Below the pieces are notes generated by a model, which saw only the letters and a program-made list of their open reading frames with translations, did not search any database and was not told the origin of the DNA. Made by a program: the position numbers and the translations under genes. This document shows positions 1-5,209 of a stretch of DNA of 5,209 bases, in pieces. Source of the DNA: a virus (taxonomy: Duplodnaviria > Heunggongvirae > Uroviricota > Caudoviricetes); IMG/VR virus record IMGVR_UViG_2690315922_000002, positions 1 to 5,209 of that record, one strand, 5' to 3'. Position 1 is the stretch's first letter. Each line of letters opens with the position of its first letter.

Positions 1-2
1 GG

Positions 3-212
3 GAAGCGGTATATGACGAGAACAGTAGCGCCGCGCCATTTGCTGAAATCATTGTGACGAAAAACCGTTTTGGCTCGCTTGGTACGGTTTACCAGCGGTT
101 CTGCAACGGACACTTTGTTGCATGTGACCAGGATGAAGCCAGACAGATTTGCACAGCATCAAATGCACCTGCTGCGCGTGGCAGACGATATGCACAAGGG
201 GCTGACGTATGA
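3..212 (+). CDS. 3' end of an upstream ORF (partial, 69 codons in window); product not recognised
   Basis: Frame open from the window edge (...[53 protein letters not shown]) to TGA at 210-212, followed 25 nt later by an intrinsic terminator. No start codon context can be judged inside the window. Confidence 0.35.
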
Positions 213-237
213 CCATCTACATCACTGAGCTAATAAC

Positions 238-269
238 AGGCCTGCTGGTAATCGCAGGCCTTTTTATTT
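238..269 (+). terminator. Rho-independent terminator (possible tR2-type terminator of the nin region)
   Basis: Perfect 8-bp stem AGGCCTGC (238-245) / GCAGGCCT (254-261) with an 8-nt loop, followed by TTTTTATTT (261-269). Position upstream of ninB matches where lambdoid phages carry N-sensitive terminators (established knowledge; identity with lambda tR2 not verified). Confidence 0.6.
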
Positions 270-284
270 GGGGGAGAGGGAATC

Positions 285-491
285 GTGGTTGAGTTGATTT
301 TCTCTGCATTGAGGCTTCTCGGTGCTATGTGGATGGTGGCGACGTTCATTGTGGTTGCTCGCTGTTTTGTCCGGTTGGTAGGCGAAGGTAAAGACCTGGT
401 GGGTGTGCTTTTCGGTAGCATTCTCCTGTGGGTGATTATCGGTGTTGCGCCTGTCGCTGTAGCAAAAATGGCGTGGCGTTTTGTGAGTTGA
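285..491 (+). CDS. Small hydrophobic protein (68 aa), probably two transmembrane helices; unrecognised family
   Basis: ORF in track with GTG start at 285 preceded by GGGGGAGAGGG (271-281) as a Shine-Dalgarno-like purine run; stop TGA 489-491. Translation is dominated by L/V/I/A/F/W stretches (LLGAMWMVATFIVVA; VLFGSILLWVIIGVAPVAVA) separated by a charged loop (RLVGEGKD). GTG start and short length make this a tentative call. Confidence 0.4.
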   Translation: MVELIFSALRLLGAMWMVATFIVVARCFVRLVGEGKDLVGVLFGSILLWVIIGVAPVAVAKMAWRFVS

Positions 492-508
492 ACTGAGGGT
501 AAGTACCG

Positions 509-886
509 ATGGACGAATCAAGAAAGCAGTTTGAAGAAAGTTGGTTGCGACGTGGGGGCGAATCTTCAGACCTTATCCGTTACCCTGAAAATCACCATGA
601 AATTGGCTGCGGTAATATTGGTGGTCAATACGTGATGGACGATGTTCAAGGCCACTGGCAAACGTGGCAGGCATCGCGAGCAGCTATTGAACTGGATATC
701 GACTGGCCCGAATCGAATGACGACTTTTGGAAAGATGGTGAAGAAGGTGCTTATGCGATGGGTTATGAGGATGGGAGAGACAAAACGGTAATTGCAGTAA
801 TGAAAGCTATCAGAGCCGCTGGAATTAAAGAGAAGAATTTCGATGAAGCAAATATACATGCTTCGCAACGAAGCAATCAGAAATAA
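509..886 (+). CDS. Hypothetical acidic protein (125 aa) in the position occupied by ninA-type genes; family not recognised
   Basis: ATG at 509 with GAGGG (495-499) about 9 nt upstream; stop TAA 884-886. Acidic, W-rich translation (DIDWPESNDDFWKDGEEGAYAMGYEDG). Its 3' end overlaps the ninB start by 44 nt. Confidence 0.5.
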   Translation: MDESRKQFEESWLRRGGESSDLIRYPENHHEIGCGNIGGQYVMDDVQGHWQTWQASRAAIELDIDWPESNDDFWKDGEEGAYAMGYEDGRDKTVIAVMKAIRAAGIKEKNFDEANIHASQRSNQK

Positions 887-1289
887 CGCCATAGACGCAA
901 TACTCTCACTTCCCATCGACGACAAGTCACCTCACGAAGTCCACGTTAAAGAACCCAGGCGGAGTAATCCTCAAAACCGCCTTATGTGGGCGTTATTGCA
1001 GGACGTATCACGTCAGGTGCTTTGGCATGGACAGAGACTTGCGCCGGAGGACTGGAAAGACCTGTTCACTGCCCTGTGGCTTAAGACCAAAAAACTAGAG
1101 CAACGAAGTGTGCCTGGTATCGATGGTGGCGTTGTCATGCTTGGTGTGCGTACCAGCAAAATGCGAAAGGCCAGCATGACTGAGCTTATCGAAATCATGT
1201 TCTGGTTCGGAGCAGAGCGCAACGTGCGGTGGAGTGATGACTCCCGGCGAGAGTATGAATGGGCACAACGAAAAGGGAGGGCTGCATGA
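843..1289 (+). CDS. ninB: NinB-like recombination protein (lambda Orf146 family)
   Basis: 148-aa translation matches lambda NinB as recalled in length and conserved blocks (NAI...NPQNRLMWALLQDVSRQVLWHGQRL...DWK...FTA...ERNVRWSD...EW...RAA). Start at 843 (MKQ...) aligns with the lambda N-terminus; an alternative ATG at 858 is possible. Stop TGA 1287-1289 overlaps the next start (ATGA). Confidence 0.8.
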   Translation: MKQIYMLRNEAIRNNAIDAILSLPIDDKSPHEVHVKEPRRSNPQNRLMWALLQDVSRQVLWHGQRLAPEDWKDLFTALWLKTKKLEQRSVPGIDGGVVMLGVRTSKMRKASMTELIEIMFWFGAERNVRWSDDSRREYEWAQRKGRAA

Positions 1290-1813
1290 CTATCAAATCA
1301 AATACGCCAGCACACGACAAGGACTGCTGGCAAACGCCGCTTTGGCTTTTTGATGCACTGGATATTGAGTTTGGATTCTGGCTGGATTCGGCAGCGAGCG
1401 ACAAAAACGCTCTGTGCGCTCACTGGCTAACTGAGGCTGATGACGCGCTAAATTCTGAGTGGATAAGCCACGGTGCAATCTGGAATAACCCACCATACAG
1501 CAATATCAGGCCGTGGGTGGAAAAAGCCGCTGAGCAGTGCATACAACAGCGACAGACGGTAGTGATGCTTGTGCCAGAGGATATGTCAGTCGGATGGTTC
1601 AGCAAGGCTCTGGAGAGTGTTGACGAAGTTCGCATCATCACTGATGGACGGATTAATTTTATCGAACCATCGACAGGGCTGGAGAAGAAGGGAAACAGCA
1701 AAGGTTCCATGCTGCTGATTTGGCGACCGTTCATCAGTCCTCGACGGATGTTTACTACCGTATCCAAATCGGCATTGATGGTGATCGGGCAGGGCGTCAG
1801 GAGGGCTGCATGA
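1286..1813 (+). CDS. Phage Dam-type DNA N6-adenine methyltransferase (orphan methyltransferase; no restriction partner seen in window)
   Basis: 175-aa ORF with the N-terminal [12 protein letters not shown]...[11 protein letters not shown] block typical of phage Dam methyltransferases and the catalytic NPPY motif encoded at 1487-1498. Start ATG 1286 is preceded by AAAGGGAGG (1271-1279). Start and stop both sit in ATGA overlaps with neighbours. The 6-frame track ORF begins at 1259, but ATG 1286 has the better ribosome-binding site. Confidence 0.8.
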
Positions 1814-1986
1814 GGCGACAGCGACGAAGTTTCACCGACATCATCTGCGAAAACTGCAAATACCTTCCAACGAAACGCTCCAGAAATAAACCCAAGCCAA
1901 TCCCAAAAGAATCTGACGTAAAAACCTTCAATTACACGGCTCACCTGTGGGATATCCGGTGGCTAAGACATCGTGCGAGGAAATGA
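1810..1986 (+). CDS. ninE: NinE-like protein
   Basis: 58-aa translation [58 protein letters not shown] matches lambda NinE as recalled. ATG 1810 overlaps the methyltransferase stop (ATGA at 1810-1813); stop TGA 1984-1986. Confidence 0.75.
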
Positions 1987-1988
1987 CA

Positions 1989-2390
1989 ATGTTTTTAATT
2001 CAACCTGGATTTGGCCTTAGCATTAAAAAAATGCACATGTTTGGCGAGAAAGAGTCACAACGAAAAATGGTGTTTATCAGATTGCCATTTATCAGTATTT
2101 GTTGGCCAAACAGGGAGGCAGCAATTTATTTGTCTACATGCGCCAGAGCAGCATTTAACGACCCTGAGTGGTTTGTAGAAAACCATCACGCTGTTCGTCA
2201 GGCGAAGAGAAAAGCTAAAACGACATACATGAAGGCGTATCGAAAAGCATGGAAAGAACACCACGATCGATACCAGCAAGACATGGAAAAGCTTGAATCA
2301 GAAAACATGGAATTAAGACGAAAGCTTGGTGAAGCAAAACGAGACATTGATGCTTACAAGCGACTTTTTAATGGTGAAAGCCATGCTTAG
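1989..2390 (+). CDS. Hypothetical protein (about 133 aa) with basic, heptad-like C-terminal region; family not recognised
   Basis: Open frame 1947-2390 in the track. Preferred start ATG 1989 with GAGGA (1977-1981) 7 nt upstream; alternatives are ATG 1983 (ATGA overlap with ninE stop), 2031 and 2067. The 5' portion (1990-2100) is AT-rich, so the true start may be internal. C-terminal part (KAYRKAWKEHHDRYQQDMEKLESENMELRRKLGEAKRDIDAYKRL) looks coiled-coil-like. Stop TAG 2388-2390. Confidence 0.45.
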   Translation: MFLIQPGFGLSIKKMHMFGEKESQRKMVFIRLPFISICWPNREAAIYLSTCARAAFNDPEWFVENHHAVRQAKRKAKTTYMKAYRKAWKEHHDRYQQDMEKLESENMELRRKLGEAKRDIDAYKRLFNGESHA

Positions 2391-2559
2391 CCCATCCCAA
2401 TCCCTTCAATACCAGAAAGAAAGCGTCGAGCGAGCTTTAACGTGCGCTAACTGCGGTCAGAAGCTGCATGTGCTGGAAGTTCACGTGTGTGAGCACTGCT
2501 GCGCAGAACTGATGAGCGATCCGAATAGCTCGATGTATGAGGAAGAAGACGATGAGTGA
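2383..2559 (+). CDS. ninF: NinF-like protein (cysteine-rich, putative zinc-binding)
   Basis: 58-aa translation MLSPSQSLQYQKESVERALTCANCGQKLHVLEVHVCEHCCAELMSDPNSSMYEEEDDE matches lambda NinF as recalled. CxxC...CxxCC spacing. Start ATG 2383 overlaps the preceding ORF's stop; an alternative in-frame ATG lies at 2371. Stop TGA 2557-2559. Confidence 0.75.
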   Translation: MLSPSQSLQYQKESVERALTCANCGQKLHVLEVHVCEHCCAELMSDPNSSMYEEEDDE

Positions 2560-2770
2560 TTCGTTTAGTAGCTCTGATTATTTGTATTTGGTTTTAGTAC
2601 CTGTGGCAGAAGTATTCCGCTCTCGATTTCCTGAAGGCTCAGCACCATTTAATGCCATTAGCACTTGCTCAAAATGCAGAGTGAAATTTACAGGTAAGCG
2701 GCTGGAAAGAGAGTGGCAGCAATTCTGCAAAAAACATGACCTAAAAAATGACCATGAACTGGAGTATTAA
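2552..2770 (+). CDS. Hypothetical small protein (72 aa); family not recognised
   Basis: ATG 2552 with GAGGAAGAAG (2539-2548) upstream; overlaps ninF stop by 8 nt; stop TAA 2768-2770 lies immediately before the next ATG (2771). Translation MSDSFSSSDYLYLVLVPVAEVFRSRFPEGSAPFNAISTCSKCRVKFTGKRLEREWQQFCKKHDLKNDHELEY. Confidence 0.5.
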   Translation: MSDSFSSSDYLYLVLVPVAEVFRSRFPEGSAPFNAISTCSKCRVKFTGKRLEREWQQFCKKHDLKNDHELEY

Positions 2771-3061
2771 ATGGCTAACCTACGCAAAGAAGCGCGCGGA
2801 AGAGAATGCCAGGTACGTATTTACGGCGTATGCAATGGCAACCCTGAAACTACAGTTCTGGCACATTACCGGATGGCTGGAATTTGCGGAACTGGAATGA
2901 AGCCTGACGACCTGATCGGCGCATGGGCTTGTAGCGCGTGTCACGATGAAATCGACCGACGCACCCATAATCTCGACAACAAAGACGCCAGACTTTATCA
3001 CCTCGAAGGCGTGATCAGGACGCAGGCGATACTGCTGAAGGAGGGGAAGATTAAGCCATGA
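2771..3061 (+). CDS. ybcO: DUF1364-family protein (YbcO-like; putative metal-binding nuclease commonly found next to rusA)
   Basis: 96-aa translation MANLRKEARGRECQVRIYGVCNGNPETTVLAH...CSACHDEIDRRTHNLDN... matches the E. coli DLP12 YbcO pattern as recalled (RGRECQVRI..VCNGNPET..LAH...ACSACHDEIDRRTH). Four conserved cysteines. Stop overlaps rusA start (ATGA at 3058-3061). Confidence 0.8.
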   Translation: MANLRKEARGRECQVRIYGVCNGNPETTVLAHYRMAGICGTGMKPDDLIGAWACSACHDEIDRRTHNLDNKDARLYHLEGVIRTQAILLKEGKIKP

Positions 3062-3420
3062 ACGAATATCAGTTTGTGCTTCCATACCCGCCATCGGTGA
3101 ATACCTACTGGCGAAGACGGGGAAGCCAATATTACATAAGCGATAAAGGCCAGAAATACCGAAAAGACGTACAGCAAATCATCCGCCAACTCAAGTTAGA
3201 TATTTTCACCAAATCACGACTCCGCATCAAAGTCATCGCAGACGTTCCAGACTCCCGCCGCCGCGACCTCGATAACATCCTGAAGGGTTTACTCGACTCA
3301 CTTATCCACGCCGGATTTGCGGAAGACGACGAGCAATTCGATGACATTCGCGTAATTCGTGGTGTGAAAGCTCCAGGCGGAAGGCTTGGAATAAAAATCA
3401 CCGAACTGGAGAACGTATGA
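3058..3420 (+). CDS. rusA: RusA-family Holliday junction resolvase (crossover junction endodeoxyribonuclease)
   Basis: 120-aa translation has RusA hallmarks: N-terminal LPYPPSVNTYW, catalytic-region DSRRRDLDNILKGLLDSL and C-terminal GGRLGIKITEL. ATGA overlaps at both ends. Confidence 0.85.
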   Translation: MNEYQFVLPYPPSVNTYWRRRGSQYYISDKGQKYRKDVQQIIRQLKLDIFTKSRLRIKVIADVPDSRRRDLDNILKGLLDSLIHAGFAEDDEQFDDIRVIRGVKAPGGRLGIKITELENV

Positions 3421-3605
3421 ACGCCACAATTCAAACGATACCAGAGCTTCTTATCCAGACACGAGGCAATCAGACCGAAGTGGCGAGGATGCTTTCCTGC
3501 GCAAGAGGAACAGTGCTCAAGTACAACCGAGACAGCAAAGGCGAGCGTCACGTAATAGTTAACGGCGTCCTGATGGTCAAACAGGGCAAAAGGGGAAGGC
3601 CATGA
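3417..3605 (+). CDS. ninH: NinH-like small DNA-binding protein
   Basis: 62-aa translation (TIPELLIQTRGNQTEVARMLSCARGTVLKYNRDSKGERHVIVNGVLMV) matches lambda NinH as recalled (TIPDML...GNQTEVARRL.CSRGTVRKY...VLMV); contains a helix-turn-helix-like segment. ATGA overlaps with rusA and Q. Confidence 0.75.
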   Translation: MNATIQTIPELLIQTRGNQTEVARMLSCARGTVLKYNRDSKGERHVIVNGVLMVKQGKRGRP

Positions 3606-4225
3606 GACTCGAAAGCGTAGCTAAATTTCATTCGCCAAAAAGCCCGATGATGAGCGACTCACCACGGGCTACGGCTTCTGACTTTCTTTCCGGTACTGAT
3701 GTGATGGCTGCTATGGGGATGGCGCAATCACAAGCCGGATTCGGAATGGCTGCATTCTGTGGTAAGCACGAACTCAGCCAGAGCGACAAACAAAAGGCTA
3801 TCAACTATCTGATGCAATTTGCACACAAGGTATCGGGGAAATACCGTGGTGTGGCAAAGCTTGAAGGAAATACTAAGGCAAAGGTACTGCAAGTGCTCGC
3901 AACATTCGCTTATGCGGATTATTGCCGTAGTGCCGCGACGCCGGGCGCAAGATGCAGAGATTGCCACGGTACAGGCCGTGCGGTTGATATATCAAAAACA
4001 GAGCAATTGGGGAGAGTTGTTGAGAAAGAGTGCGGAAGATGCAAAGGCGTCGGCTATTCAAGAATGCCAGCAAGCGCAGCATATCGCGCTGTGACGATGC
4101 TAATCCCAAACCTTACCCAACCCACCTGGTCACGCACTGTTAAGCCGCTGTATGACGCTCTGGTGGTGCAATGCCACAAGGAAGAGTCAATCGCAGATAA
4201 CATTTTGAACGAGGTCACACGTTAG
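3602..4225 (+). CDS. Q: Late-gene antitermination protein Q (lambda-type Q)
   Basis: 207-aa ORF, the same length as lambda Q. The translation (MRLESVAKFHSPKSPMMSDSPRATASD...CRDCHGTGRAVD...CGRCKGVGYSR...) agrees with lambda Q as I recall it almost residue for residue, including the zinc-binding cysteine cluster. Followed by a pR'-type promoter. Confidence 0.9.
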   Translation: MRLESVAKFHSPKSPMMSDSPRATASDFLSGTDVMAAMGMAQSQAGFGMAAFCGKHELSQSDKQKAINYLMQFAHKVSGKYRGVAKLEGNTKAKVLQVLATFAYADYCRSAATPGARCRDCHGTGRAVDISKTEQLGRVVEKECGRCKGVGYSRMPASAAYRAVTMLIPNLTQPTWSRTVKPLYDALVVQCHKEESIADNILNEVTR

Positions 4226-4267
4226 CAGCATGATTGCCACGGATGGCAACATATTAACGGCATAATA

Positions 4268-4310
4268 TTGACTGTTTGAATAAAGTTGGGTAAATTTGAC
4301 CCAAGAATGG
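4268..4310 (+). promoter_or_regulatory. Late promoter pR' with overlapping qut (Q-utilisation) region
   Basis: TTGACT (4268-4273), 17-bp spacer, TAAATT (4291-4296), then TGACCC and a -10-like AAGAAT (4303-4308) at the position of the lambda pause-inducing element (AACGAT in lambda as recalled). The sequence differs from the lambda pR' region as recalled at only a few positions up to 4310. Confidence 0.7.
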
Positions 4311-4496
4311 CAGATTTATATCCGTTCACATTCTTTCAGCTTTTACCCACCTCATCTTTAAGTTCTAAGCGCACTGACATGCGCATCATAAACTCGAGAG
4401 CACATAGGAATAGAGCCTGAGAAATATCGCTTTTGGCGACTTCTCTCGTGGTGATATTTCTATGTCAGCAGGCTCTAATATCTATGTGGTTCGCCT

Positions 4497-4661
4497 ATGT
4501 TAAAACGTGAAGATGCATTGAGACTTTTTAATTACAATCCAGATACTGGAATTCTTACATGGAGGATTCATGTAGGGTGTTTTGACGATATCGAGGAGGC
4601 TAGAAAGGCAATGGAAAATGCCAGAATAAAATATCATGGTGAATTCTCCAGTATGGGATAG
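4497..4661 (+). pseudogene. Remnant of an HNH/AP2-type homing endonuclease gene (54-codon in-frame fusion of the N-terminal and C-terminal ends)
   Basis: Translation MLKREDALRLFNYNPDTGILTWRIHVGCFDDIEEARKAMENARIKYHGEFSSMG. The N-terminal Y-x-P-D/E-T-G-x-L/F-T-W motif and the C-terminal AP2-like G-x-F-x-x-x-E-E-A...A-x-x-K-Y-H-G-E-F are both present, but the roughly 100-residue HNH catalytic core between them is absent. No convincing Shine-Dalgarno sequence. Not in the ORF track because it is under 60 aa. Confidence 0.55.
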
Positions 4662-4663
4662 AT

Positions 4664-4780
4664 GGGGTAATTCGCTCGTTGTGGTAGTGAGATGAAAAAA
4701 GGCGGCGCTTTACTACCGATTCCGCCTAGTTGGTCACTTCGACGTATCGTCTGGAACTCCAACCATCGCGGGCTGAGAGG
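4664..4780 (+). other. Segment homologous to the 5' part of the lambda pR' transcript (6S RNA / late leader), displaced about 355 bp downstream of its promoter
   Basis: ATGGGGTAATTCGCTCGTTGTGGTAGTGAGATGAAAAAAGGCGGCGCTTTACTACCGATTCCGCCTAGTTGGTCACTTCGACGTATCGTCTGGAACTCCAACCATCGC... agrees with the lambda sequence just downstream of pR' as recalled. Resemblance ends near 4780; the lambda tR' hairpin (GCCTGCATAACGGTTTCGGGATTTTTT) is not present. Confidence 0.5.
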
Positions 4781-4821
4781 TTTGCAAATATTGACGCAAT
4801 AAAGTTGCTAATGTGGTAACT

Positions 4822-4848
4822 AATACCCCGTATCTCTGTGTGGGTATT
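4822..4848. terminator. Weak hairpin, possible bidirectional terminator (end of antisense ORF; possible tR' substitute on + strand)
   Basis: AATACCC (4822-4828) / GGGTATT (4842-4848), 7-bp stem with a 13-nt loop, followed on + by TAATTATTTC and on - by a modest T-rich tail. AT-rich stem, so predicted stability is low. Confidence 0.3.
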
Positions 4849-4851
4849 TAA

Positions 4852-5031
4852 TTATTTCAATAGTTCCTGAAATTCAGCGACTAGATCCGCATGTCTTTTC
4901 ATTAGTGGTGTGATAAGACTTTTCTTGTTTTCATCAGAGTGCGTTGACATGGCTATTTGCAAGGTTTTATCAGAGATCTCTTGAAGTAACATATGGATTG
5001 CGTGGAGCCTTCTTGTGTCAAAGTCATTCAT
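4852..5031 (-). CDS. Small hypothetical protein (59 aa), antisense to the late transcript; family not recognised
   Basis: Minus-strand ORF hand-translated as MNDFDTRRLHAIHMLLQEISDKTLQIAMSTHSDENKKSLITPLMKRHADLVAEFQELLK. The ATG (complement of 5029-5031) is preceded on the minus strand by AAGAAGGA about 10 nt upstream; stop is the complement of 4852-4854. Below the 60-aa cutoff of the ORF track. Lies in an AT-rich segment with no resemblance to lambda. Confidence 0.4.
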   Translation of the reverse strand: MNDFDTRRLHAIHMLLQEISDKTLQIAMSTHSDENKKSLITPLMKRHADLVAEFQELLK

Positions 5032-5209
5032 TTGTGTTTAATCCTTCTTTATATGAATGACAACATTAGCACAACATTTCTGAAATGCATAACCAACCAA
5101 ACACAAAGCATACAAAACAATCACCTTATCCGCTGTGGTACGGTGCGGTGTTCTTTGCATAAAAGAAAACCAGCGCAATGGCTGGCTTCGTGAAAGCGGG
5201 TGGCAAGAG

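Follow-up and report, generated by a model that had tools for sequence, protein, structure and literature searches.

Probable Remnant of an HNH-AP2 Homing Endonuclease Gene in the Late-Operon Leader of a Lambdoid Prophage

Introduction

HNH-AP2 genes are a recognized class of free-standing phage homing endonuclease genes (PMC10448857). Members of the family include the IPA-HNH genes of Barth et al. 2023 and the HNN-AP2 genes of the Xanthomonas phages Xp10, OP1 and Xop411 (PHROG_99; PF13392 + PF00847), and degenerate copies that keep only the C-terminal half of the AP2 domain occur in Xanthomonas phages (PMC2248197). The DNA-binding modules of homing endonucleases are also found in small phage proteins that have no nuclease, such as CapR of the PLE satellites and the anti-CRISPR repressors CasPR (CapR + AP2).

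A second group of relevant systems is the cargo of lambdoid late leaders. The late promoter pR' is constitutive and its transcripts stop at the terminator tR' in lysogens (PMC7547250), while a role has been described for a −10-like element at +1 to +6 of the lambda leader (PMC4604602). Examples from this region are the Shiga-toxin and tRNA genes of Stx phages, the StxS small RNA and the lambda 6S RNA; foreign DNA located downstream of the Q-loading site is read by Q-modified polymerase.

Here we describe a 54-codon open reading frame (ORF) that brings these two groups together. It lies in a 5,209-nucleotide stretch of DNA (IMG/VR record IMGVR_UViG_2690315922_000002, positions 1–5,209; hereafter the window), in which a first-pass annotation had proposed a miniaturized HNH/AP2 endonuclease inside the late leader. 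A literature search found no description of an HNH gene in a lambdoid late leader (pR' to tR') or in Escherichia albertii prophages, and we conclude that the ORF represents a decayed homing endonuclease gene in a location for which no earlier description was found.

Results

A lambda-type late promoter with an intact Q-loading site

The window is the nin-to-Q-to-late-leader segment of a lambdoid prophage. Its nin-side genes encode NinB, a Dam-type methylase, small nin ORFs, a DUF1364/YbcO protein, RusA and NinH; between 1947 and 2770 the nin region has three small ORFs (147, 77 and 77 aa) that overlap one another, and CxxC pairs occur in two of the products. The gene for a lambda-type Q antiterminator of 207 aa occupies 3602–4225 on the plus strand, and nucleotide identity to lambda over Q and pR' is 96.4%. 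Q homologues at related loci carry the PF03589 Antiterm domain or are annotated "antitermination protein". A promoter scan located pR' at 4268–4296 (plus strand), with the −35 hexamer TTGACT at 4268–4273, a 17-bp spacer and the −10 hexamer TAAATT at 4291–4296, and alignment to lambda showed both hexamers to be the same as those of lambda. Of the features of a lambda-type late leader, the region thus has a lambda-type Q gene followed by a pR' with matching hexamers.

The same alignment places the plus-strand transcript start (+1) at 4303, equivalent to lambda 44587. Positions +1 to +6 (4303–4308, plus strand) read AAGAAT where lambda has AACGAT, and are predicted from sequence to act as the −10-like pause-inducing element: AAGAAT matches four of the six positions of TATAAT, including A2 and T6, against three of six for the lambda element. 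Beyond +8 the sequence differs from lambda. The AAGAAT element is also present in the HNH-less leaders described below. The ORF had been presented as a selfish element sitting in an essential regulatory region, and it does lie in the late leader; the promoter and the +1 to +6 element, however, are uninterrupted, and the Q-loading site (promoter plus −10-like element) appears to have been kept intact.

At 4286–4304, a T-to-C change at −2 gives a perfect 6-bp inverted repeat (TTGGGT ... ACCCAA) around the pR' −10. The −2 position is polymorphic among HNH-positive alleles (GACCC, GACTC, AACCC, GACCA), and the inverted repeat is therefore not tied to the insert.

The 54-codon ORF keeps both ends of an HNH-AP2 endonuclease

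The ORF runs from ATG to TAG at 4497–4661 on the plus strand and its 54 codons encode MLKREDALRLFNYNPDTGILTWRIHVGCFDDIEEARKAMENARIKYHGEFSSMG. It starts 272 nt downstream of the Q gene, inside a 355-nt stretch (4311–4665) that is absent from lambda, and its 3′ end coincides with the right-hand junction to the lambda leader. PHROG_99, "HNH endonuclease", matched the product with E = 7.6e-14 in two separate stretches, residues 23–53 aligning to profile positions 236–266; a full-length relative covers positions 108–266 continuously. In an alignment (A1) with homologues 35–49% identical from Escherichia phage Bas77, Xanthomonas phage Xop411 (p42.1), Salmonella phage S101 and Klebsiella phage SCNJ1-C, residues Y13, T17 and G18 of the N-terminal motif were invariant, and the C-terminal G.F....A....K.H pattern was conserved too. 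The proposal that both terminal signatures of the family survive in the product is borne out by these matches.

Pfam alone was insufficient, and PHROGs together with comparison to relatives were needed. The AP2 match was sub-threshold (E = 0.13; 13.1 bits versus a 33.3-bit cutoff) and spanned only profile positions 29–53 of 54, and no HNH_3 match was obtained, because the HNH part is deleted. Profile searches of the 54-aa translation, which had been suggested as a check, consequently gave a clear answer with PHROG_99 but not with Pfam. The other ORFs of the insert, 4286–4420 on the plus strand and 4500–4637 on the minus strand, had no profile match. With homology to the family present and both the HNH motif and a complete AP2 domain absent, the ORF reads as a remnant of an HNH-AP2 family member and not as a working member.

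A full-length gene at the same site and a single 327-bp deletion

Sixteen of 5426 complete E. coli genomes match window positions 4300–4700 over their whole length, in two pieces that span 724–726 bp compared with 401 in the window, and the additional sequence bears the annotation "HNH endonuclease". Four E. coli loci were retrieved, and each encodes the same 163-aa protein, WP_000919140.1, between Q and the holin gene. It contains HNH_3 at residues 55–97 (E = 6e-17) and AP2 at residues 108–157 (E = 5e-8; 33.6 bits, which passes the cutoff), and its 492-bp gene has flanks ~99% identical to those of the window. The full-length cassette was also found in 15 further IMG/VR contigs (11 intact, 2 frameshifted, 2 truncated where the locus ends); the upstream flank is the same in all of them, and so is the downstream flank wherever the locus extends that far. 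A search for relatives with a full-length HNH gene at this position, the second check suggested for the ORF, was thus positive. The site is empty in lambda and ~100 other phages, and none of the sequenced phages in INPHARED carries the insert; the gene is free-standing, with presence and absence alleles at one locus, and the occupied state was found in 16 E. coli genomes and, counting the deleted allele, in 16 IMG/VR contigs.

The window ORF equals the WP_000919140.1 gene minus codons 23–131, a loss of exactly 327 bp that preserves the reading frame, and its product is 100% identical to residues 1–22 plus 132–163 of that protein. Codons 1–22, with the N-terminal Y..DTG..TW motif, lie at 4497–4562 (plus strand) and are the same as the full-length gene in L002 at 66 of 66 nt. 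Codons 132–163 and the stop codon follow at 4563–4661 (plus strand; 98 of 99 nt the same as L002) and encode the last strand and helix of the AP2 domain. The one difference in the remaining 165 bp is synonymous. At the junction, 4562/4563, there is 1 nt (A) of microhomology. The deletion takes out the entire HNH motif and the first half of AP2: HNH_3, at residues 55–97, falls wholly inside the deleted codons, in agreement with the first-pass view that the catalytic core is lacking, and the colinearity with WP_000919140.1 upholds the accompanying suggestion that an internal in-frame deletion fused the two ends. Since the window ORF is the full-length gene minus 327 bp, the short form is a deletion product and not an independent domain.

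The exact 54-aa protein is present on 19 contigs. All named members of its cluster are from E. albertii, where it is annotated "hypothetical protein"; three of the 19 contigs are complete chromosomes, and the assemblies are independent. The same junction occurs in one IMG/VR contig (L004 = L008), which is 98.3% identical to the window over 2501–5209. None of the 5426 complete E. coli genomes and none of the GTDB representative genomes has the junction, as would be expected if the short ORF were an assembly or sequencing artefact, or perhaps an ancestral state that later received an HNH core. Against both stand the recurrence of the exact junction and protein in the 19 E. albertii contigs and the related IMG/VR contig, the 2894 phage homologue records that are colinear with the 163-aa form and cover at least 80% of it, and the location of HNH_3 wholly within the missing piece. 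These observations refute the artefact and ancestral-state explanations, and we attach next to no probability to either.

The insertion is a composite of two leaders and an HNH cassette

The window follows lambda to +8 of the pR' transcript and then departs from it for the 355 nt noted above; the lambda leader is back at GATGGG (4661). This lambda-type 6S leader (4661–4786, plus strand) begins at the equivalent of +4, has neither promoter nor tR', and is 95% identical to lambda 44590–44716. Taken at face value, such an arrangement suggests a simple insertion at +8/+9 that splits the Q-utilization site. That model was rejected, as HNH-less leaders of an alternative type ("type B") share 4303–4420. 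Thus the idea of an insertion into the pR' leader held insofar as an HNH gene does lie inside the leader, but the first ~110 nt of the foreign stretch are an alternative leader that exists without HNH.

The HNH-less leaders to which window 4303–4420 aligns belong to the lambda-Q-type prophages L015 and L016, in which tRNA-Asn and tRNA-Thr genes precede the lysis genes. There, the leader passes from TAGAGCCTG into CATAACGGTTTCGGGATTTTTT, which is the 3′ half of a terminator shared with lambda tR'. The window and the HNH-positive alleles of E. coli differ at this point: after TAGAGCCTG come 76 nt of unique sequence, then the HNH gene, then the lambda leader from +4. Lambda tR' comes next in the E. 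coli alleles; one genome, L018, goes on from there into tRNA genes. The segment 4311–4420 (plus strand) is accordingly a type-B leader segment broken within its own terminator after TAGAGCCTG, and 4421–4496 (plus strand), the 5′ untranslated region of the HNH gene, occurs only together with that gene. Two descriptions of the insert are possible: relative to lambda it comprises 4311–4660 with ATGG repeats at both sides, and relative to the alternative leader it is enclosed by TAGAGCCTG repeats and consists of the HNH-specific 76 nt, the gene and most of the lambda leader.

These comparisons define a second late-leader type for lambda-type Q (window 4303–4420, L015 2502–2650, L016 2392–2580). 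It is identical to lambda to +8 except for two substitutions at +3/+4, is unrelated from +9 to ~+100, and then meets the tR' 3′ half, followed by tRNA-Asn, tRNA-Thr and a class II holin gene. The L016 leader has an extra 46-nt GC-rich insert. The 5′ end of the cassette was absent from GTDB representative genomes.

The parent gene is maintained and the insert appears young

Among 15 intact genes, 15 variant codons are synonymous and 7 are conservative non-synonymous (pN/pS ~0.13). The intact alleles are under purifying selection, and the parent gene has therefore been maintained. Nucleotide diversity within the insert of HNH-positive alleles was 0.011 in the leader part, 0.002 in the 76-nt 5′ untranslated part, which is the least diverse of all segments, and 0.010 in the gene. 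The flanks of the same alleles gave 0.032 (Q), 0.033 (Q-to-pR' spacer) and 0.025 (lambda-type leader). Diversity of the insert is thus about three-fold under that of its flanks, and variable sites return within ~6 nt of its ends. This pattern fits a younger element entering diverged alleles and is consistent with homing.

The claim that an endonuclease delivered its own DNA to the leader is consistent with three features of the data: the presence/absence polymorphism, the identical junctions everywhere and the three-fold lower diversity of the insert. The latter two, identical junctions and low diversity, would be accounted for just as well by one illegitimate insertion that ordinary homologous recombination then spread. 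By that account the HNH gene is a "moron", a piece of extra cargo acquired once, the nuclease never homed, and the remnant carries no information on the arrival of the insertion. Every copy has the same upstream context and, where sequence reaches, the same downstream context; sequenced phages have no copy above 46% identity elsewhere. That alternative leader, HNH cassette and lambda leader are combined in one chimeric insert is unexpected for simple homing, and the 4-bp (ATGG) and 9-bp (TAGAGCCTG) repeats flanking its two descriptions are typical of microhomology-mediated joining. On the other hand, the family is a recognized class of homing endonuclease genes, and this member is under purifying selection though it offers no obvious benefit to the phage. 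An insert less diverse than both flanks is what a young element invading diverged alleles would leave, and the insert has been joined to two downstream contexts, lambda-type and tRNA-bearing. We consider acquisition without homing a serious but less probable account of how the gene spread.

An independent dead allele was found in IMG/VR contigs L026 and L035. An A-run at gene position 118 has lost 1 nt, so that the frame shifts after codon 39, and the DHIN catalytic motif has a His-to-Tyr change at gene position 223. In frameshifted alleles, the frame of Met52 is the surviving C-terminal reading frame, and the L026/L035 allele is the probable source of some 112-aa entries that begin at Met52 and are annotated "HNH endonuclease / Fis family regulator". 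A contig recording one of the 112-aa cluster members has an intact 163-codon gene. The notion that the 112-aa forms are N-terminally decayed was rejected, since at least some are alternative start calls at Met52. Taken together, the alleles argue that this locus goes through the usual gain-then-decay cycle of a homing endonuclease gene, with homing itself the step that we infer.

The deleted allele travels with the Q-to-leader module

Among the E. albertii loci, the module from Q to the leader (3591–5209) is at least 99.2% identical. Its surroundings are not: the nin genes upstream vary, and the packaging genes downstream are of lambda Nu1/A type, of Terminase_2/6N type, or an HK97-like HNH plus Terminase_4 set. 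Terminase and portal types differ among the loci with the deleted allele, which is found in at least four different prophage backbones. Such near-identity amid differing neighbors shows that the deletion arose once and then traveled with the working Q-pR' module through mosaic prophages.

The right-hand part of the module, 4787–5209, is unrelated DNA that replaces the lambda tR' region, homology of the leader to lambda stopping at 4786–4788, ahead of tR'. It holds a minus-strand gene for a 59-aa protein with no assigned function (4852–5031; full-length match to PHROG_3719, E = 1.9e-30), which lies outside the HNH remnant yet within the same E. albertii module and was found at all E. albertii loci. 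A good minus-strand terminator is located at 5189–5166.

Survival of the allele in several backgrounds, together with the in-frame deletion, could hint at selection for the short product. The 54-aa protein might then be a domesticated mini-protein (a repressor, an anti-homing immunity factor or a leader peptide for late transcription) that binds DNA or the full-length nuclease. Apart from the deletion its ORF is intact, the only change relative to the E. coli alleles being silent, and homing-endonuclease DNA-binding domains, AP2 included, have been co-opted as regulators elsewhere (PMC10448857; bioRxiv 10.64898/2026.02.23.707548). A single-sequence AlphaFold model of the product shows a hairpin plus a helix, although its confidence is low (pLDDT 60, pTM 0.33). 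However, one deletion in three would keep the frame by chance alone, so that the in-frame outcome needs no special explanation; the deletion looks recent, so that an intact ORF is uninformative; and with copies at least 99.2% identical, a test for selection on the short product is without power. Just 26 of the 54 AP2 profile positions are left, the lost strands being the first two of the DNA-contacting sheet, and one of the two known variants has a non-conservative E5A substitution (P0002). CapR and CasPR differ in keeping complete domains with conserved arginines, whereas the remnant is reduced to the final strand and the helix of AP2, with no sign of selection. Finally, the entire Q-to-leader module moves as one, and hitch-hiking suffices to account for persistence in at least four backbones. 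A domesticated function for the product is, in our judgment, very improbable.

Nuclease genes recur at several intergenic positions of these mosaic prophages. A further HNH_3 gene, of 188 aa, is present between ninE and ninG in L005 and L007 (3304–3870), a truncated HNH pseudogene precedes the terminase genes in L003 (8864–9013), and an HK97-type HNH lies beside the terminase gene in L009 (3789–4139).

Hairpins, terminators and expression

The sequence 4411–4477 can form a hairpin of ~−30 kcal/mol (z = −3.1; none of 200 shuffles was as stable), with its left arm from the alternative leader and its right arm from HNH-specific sequence, 20 nt ahead of the ATG. A role as a signal in translation or processing is conceivable; with all copies ~99% identical, covariation is without power here. 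There is no obvious Shine-Dalgarno sequence ahead of the ORF ATG at 4497. Translation of other phage homing endonucleases is kept low, and by analogy the 4411–4477 hairpin and the weak start may hold down that of this nuclease.

A second hairpin was created by the deletion (4553–4587, plus strand). Its arms, TCTTACATGGA and TTCATGTAGGG, form an 11–16-bp stem followed by TGTTTTG (UGUUUUG in the transcript), and it was a terminator-like match in the scan; the fold of 4545–4590 has an energy of −11 kcal/mol (z = −2.4; 2 of 200 shuffles as stable). The terminator scan did not report this hairpin in the full-length allele. The deletion junction falls in the loop of the TCTTACATGGA / TTCATGTAGGG inverted repeat, a feature that could be fortuitous, could have guided the deletion or could serve as a weak terminator.

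The window has no tR' between pR' and the lysis genes, whereas full-length E. coli alleles keep lambda tR'. All plus-strand terminator candidates in the window are weak (4553–4577, 4827–4844 and 5131–5150). In full-length alleles, the scan found no terminator-like site from pR' to tR'; it is limited to loops of 3–8 nt and misses lambda tR' itself. Rfam gave nothing for 4150–5209 at E up to 1. Compared with lambda and the E. coli alleles, the window has 1 extra nt at 4710–4712 (GCGCTTTAC; GCGCTTAC in lambda). The insertion shifts the frame of the lambda orf-64 equivalent and leaves a 36-codon ORF (4692–4802), which argues against orf-64 as a conserved gene.

These features admit an adaptive account, in which the leader position of the gene is no accident. 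From a place between the constitutive pR' and tR', the lysogen would continuously produce an intact nuclease, which might cut incoming HNH-less lambda-Q-type phages at their conserved pR'/leader sequence and so provide both homing and superinfection exclusion. In the tR'-less E. albertii module, the 327-bp deletion may have been favored, as it disarms the nuclease and leaves at the junction a hairpin plus U-tract, a possible replacement early terminator. We think this scenario unlikely.

Discussion

Our preferred explanation, which we hold to be highly probable, is that the 54-codon ORF is a dead allele of a free-standing HNH-AP2 homing endonuclease gene that resides in lambda-Q-type late-operon leaders, and that it is non-functional and kept by linkage. 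An intact allele reads, in order, pR', ~118 nt of leader, a 76-nt structured UTR, the 163-codon nuclease gene, a promoterless lambda leader from +4, tR' and the lysis genes. Because the gene lies between the always-on pR' and tR', its transcription is expected in lysogens; expression from pR' is what we infer from this position. Q-modified polymerase would read through the nuclease gene during lytic growth, when it would come first on the late transcript. Codons 23–131 were lost in one lineage through a single deletion of 327 bp, with 1 nt of microhomology at its junction, and by a chance in-frame outcome the 54-codon ORF was left, the only part of the gene that the transcript would carry in the window. 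The product of this ORF has none of the catalytic residues, cannot cut DNA and is most likely functionless. The remnant persists through linkage to a working Q-pR'-leader module that recombined into several E. albertii prophages.

In many respects the locus resembles described members of the HNH-AP2 family. The parent gene has the two domains and the N-terminal motif, is 45–47% identical to Xop411 p42.1, Bas77 and related Escherichia, Salmonella and Klebsiella phage genes (the best protein homologues among sequenced phages being at most 46% identical to the full-length gene), and is likewise intergenic, free-standing and polymorphic for presence and absence. Its setting is different, as the hosts described for the family are the Xanthomonas phages Xp10, OP1 and Xop411 and Vibrio phage ICP1, and the host of the remnant is a temperate lambdoid prophage. 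The remnant reaches the same end state as the degenerate Xanthomonas copies. Unlike them, it also keeps the N-terminal 22 residues, fused in frame by one clean deletion and not by progressive truncation.

The comparison with late-leader cargo gives a similarly mixed picture. As in Stx phages, foreign DNA is found downstream of the Q-loading site, where Q-modified polymerase would read it, and relatives of the window have tRNA-Asn/tRNA-Thr at the same place. As with other lambdoid leader cargo, the pR'-proximal part would be transcribed constitutively in lysogens up to tR' (PMC7547250). In contrast to Stx-type cargo, full-length E. coli alleles place the gene upstream and not downstream of tR', and what is carried is a selfish nuclease, inactivated in the window, rather than a gene of benefit to the host.

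Losing the catalytic core is nothing out of the ordinary for a decaying gene of this kind; it is the place that is unusual. For annotation, the proper label of the E. albertii 54-aa "hypothetical protein" is HNH endonuclease pseudogene fragment. More broadly, one site, in a regulatory region that is among the best understood in biology, offers a natural life-cycle series that runs from the empty site through the intact gene, which is under purifying selection, to an allele with a frameshift and an active-site change and to the in-frame core deletion. The locus also shows that the lambda late leader tolerates several hundred additional bases of transcribed sequence immediately beyond the Q-loading site, and that a selfish gene can reside in the pR'-tR' stretch, a region transcribed in every lysogen. 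It is the parent locus, more than the remnant, that deserves experiment: should the nuclease turn out to be active, lambda genetics would make it easy to test both homing in temperate phages and the expression of a nuclease by a prophage.
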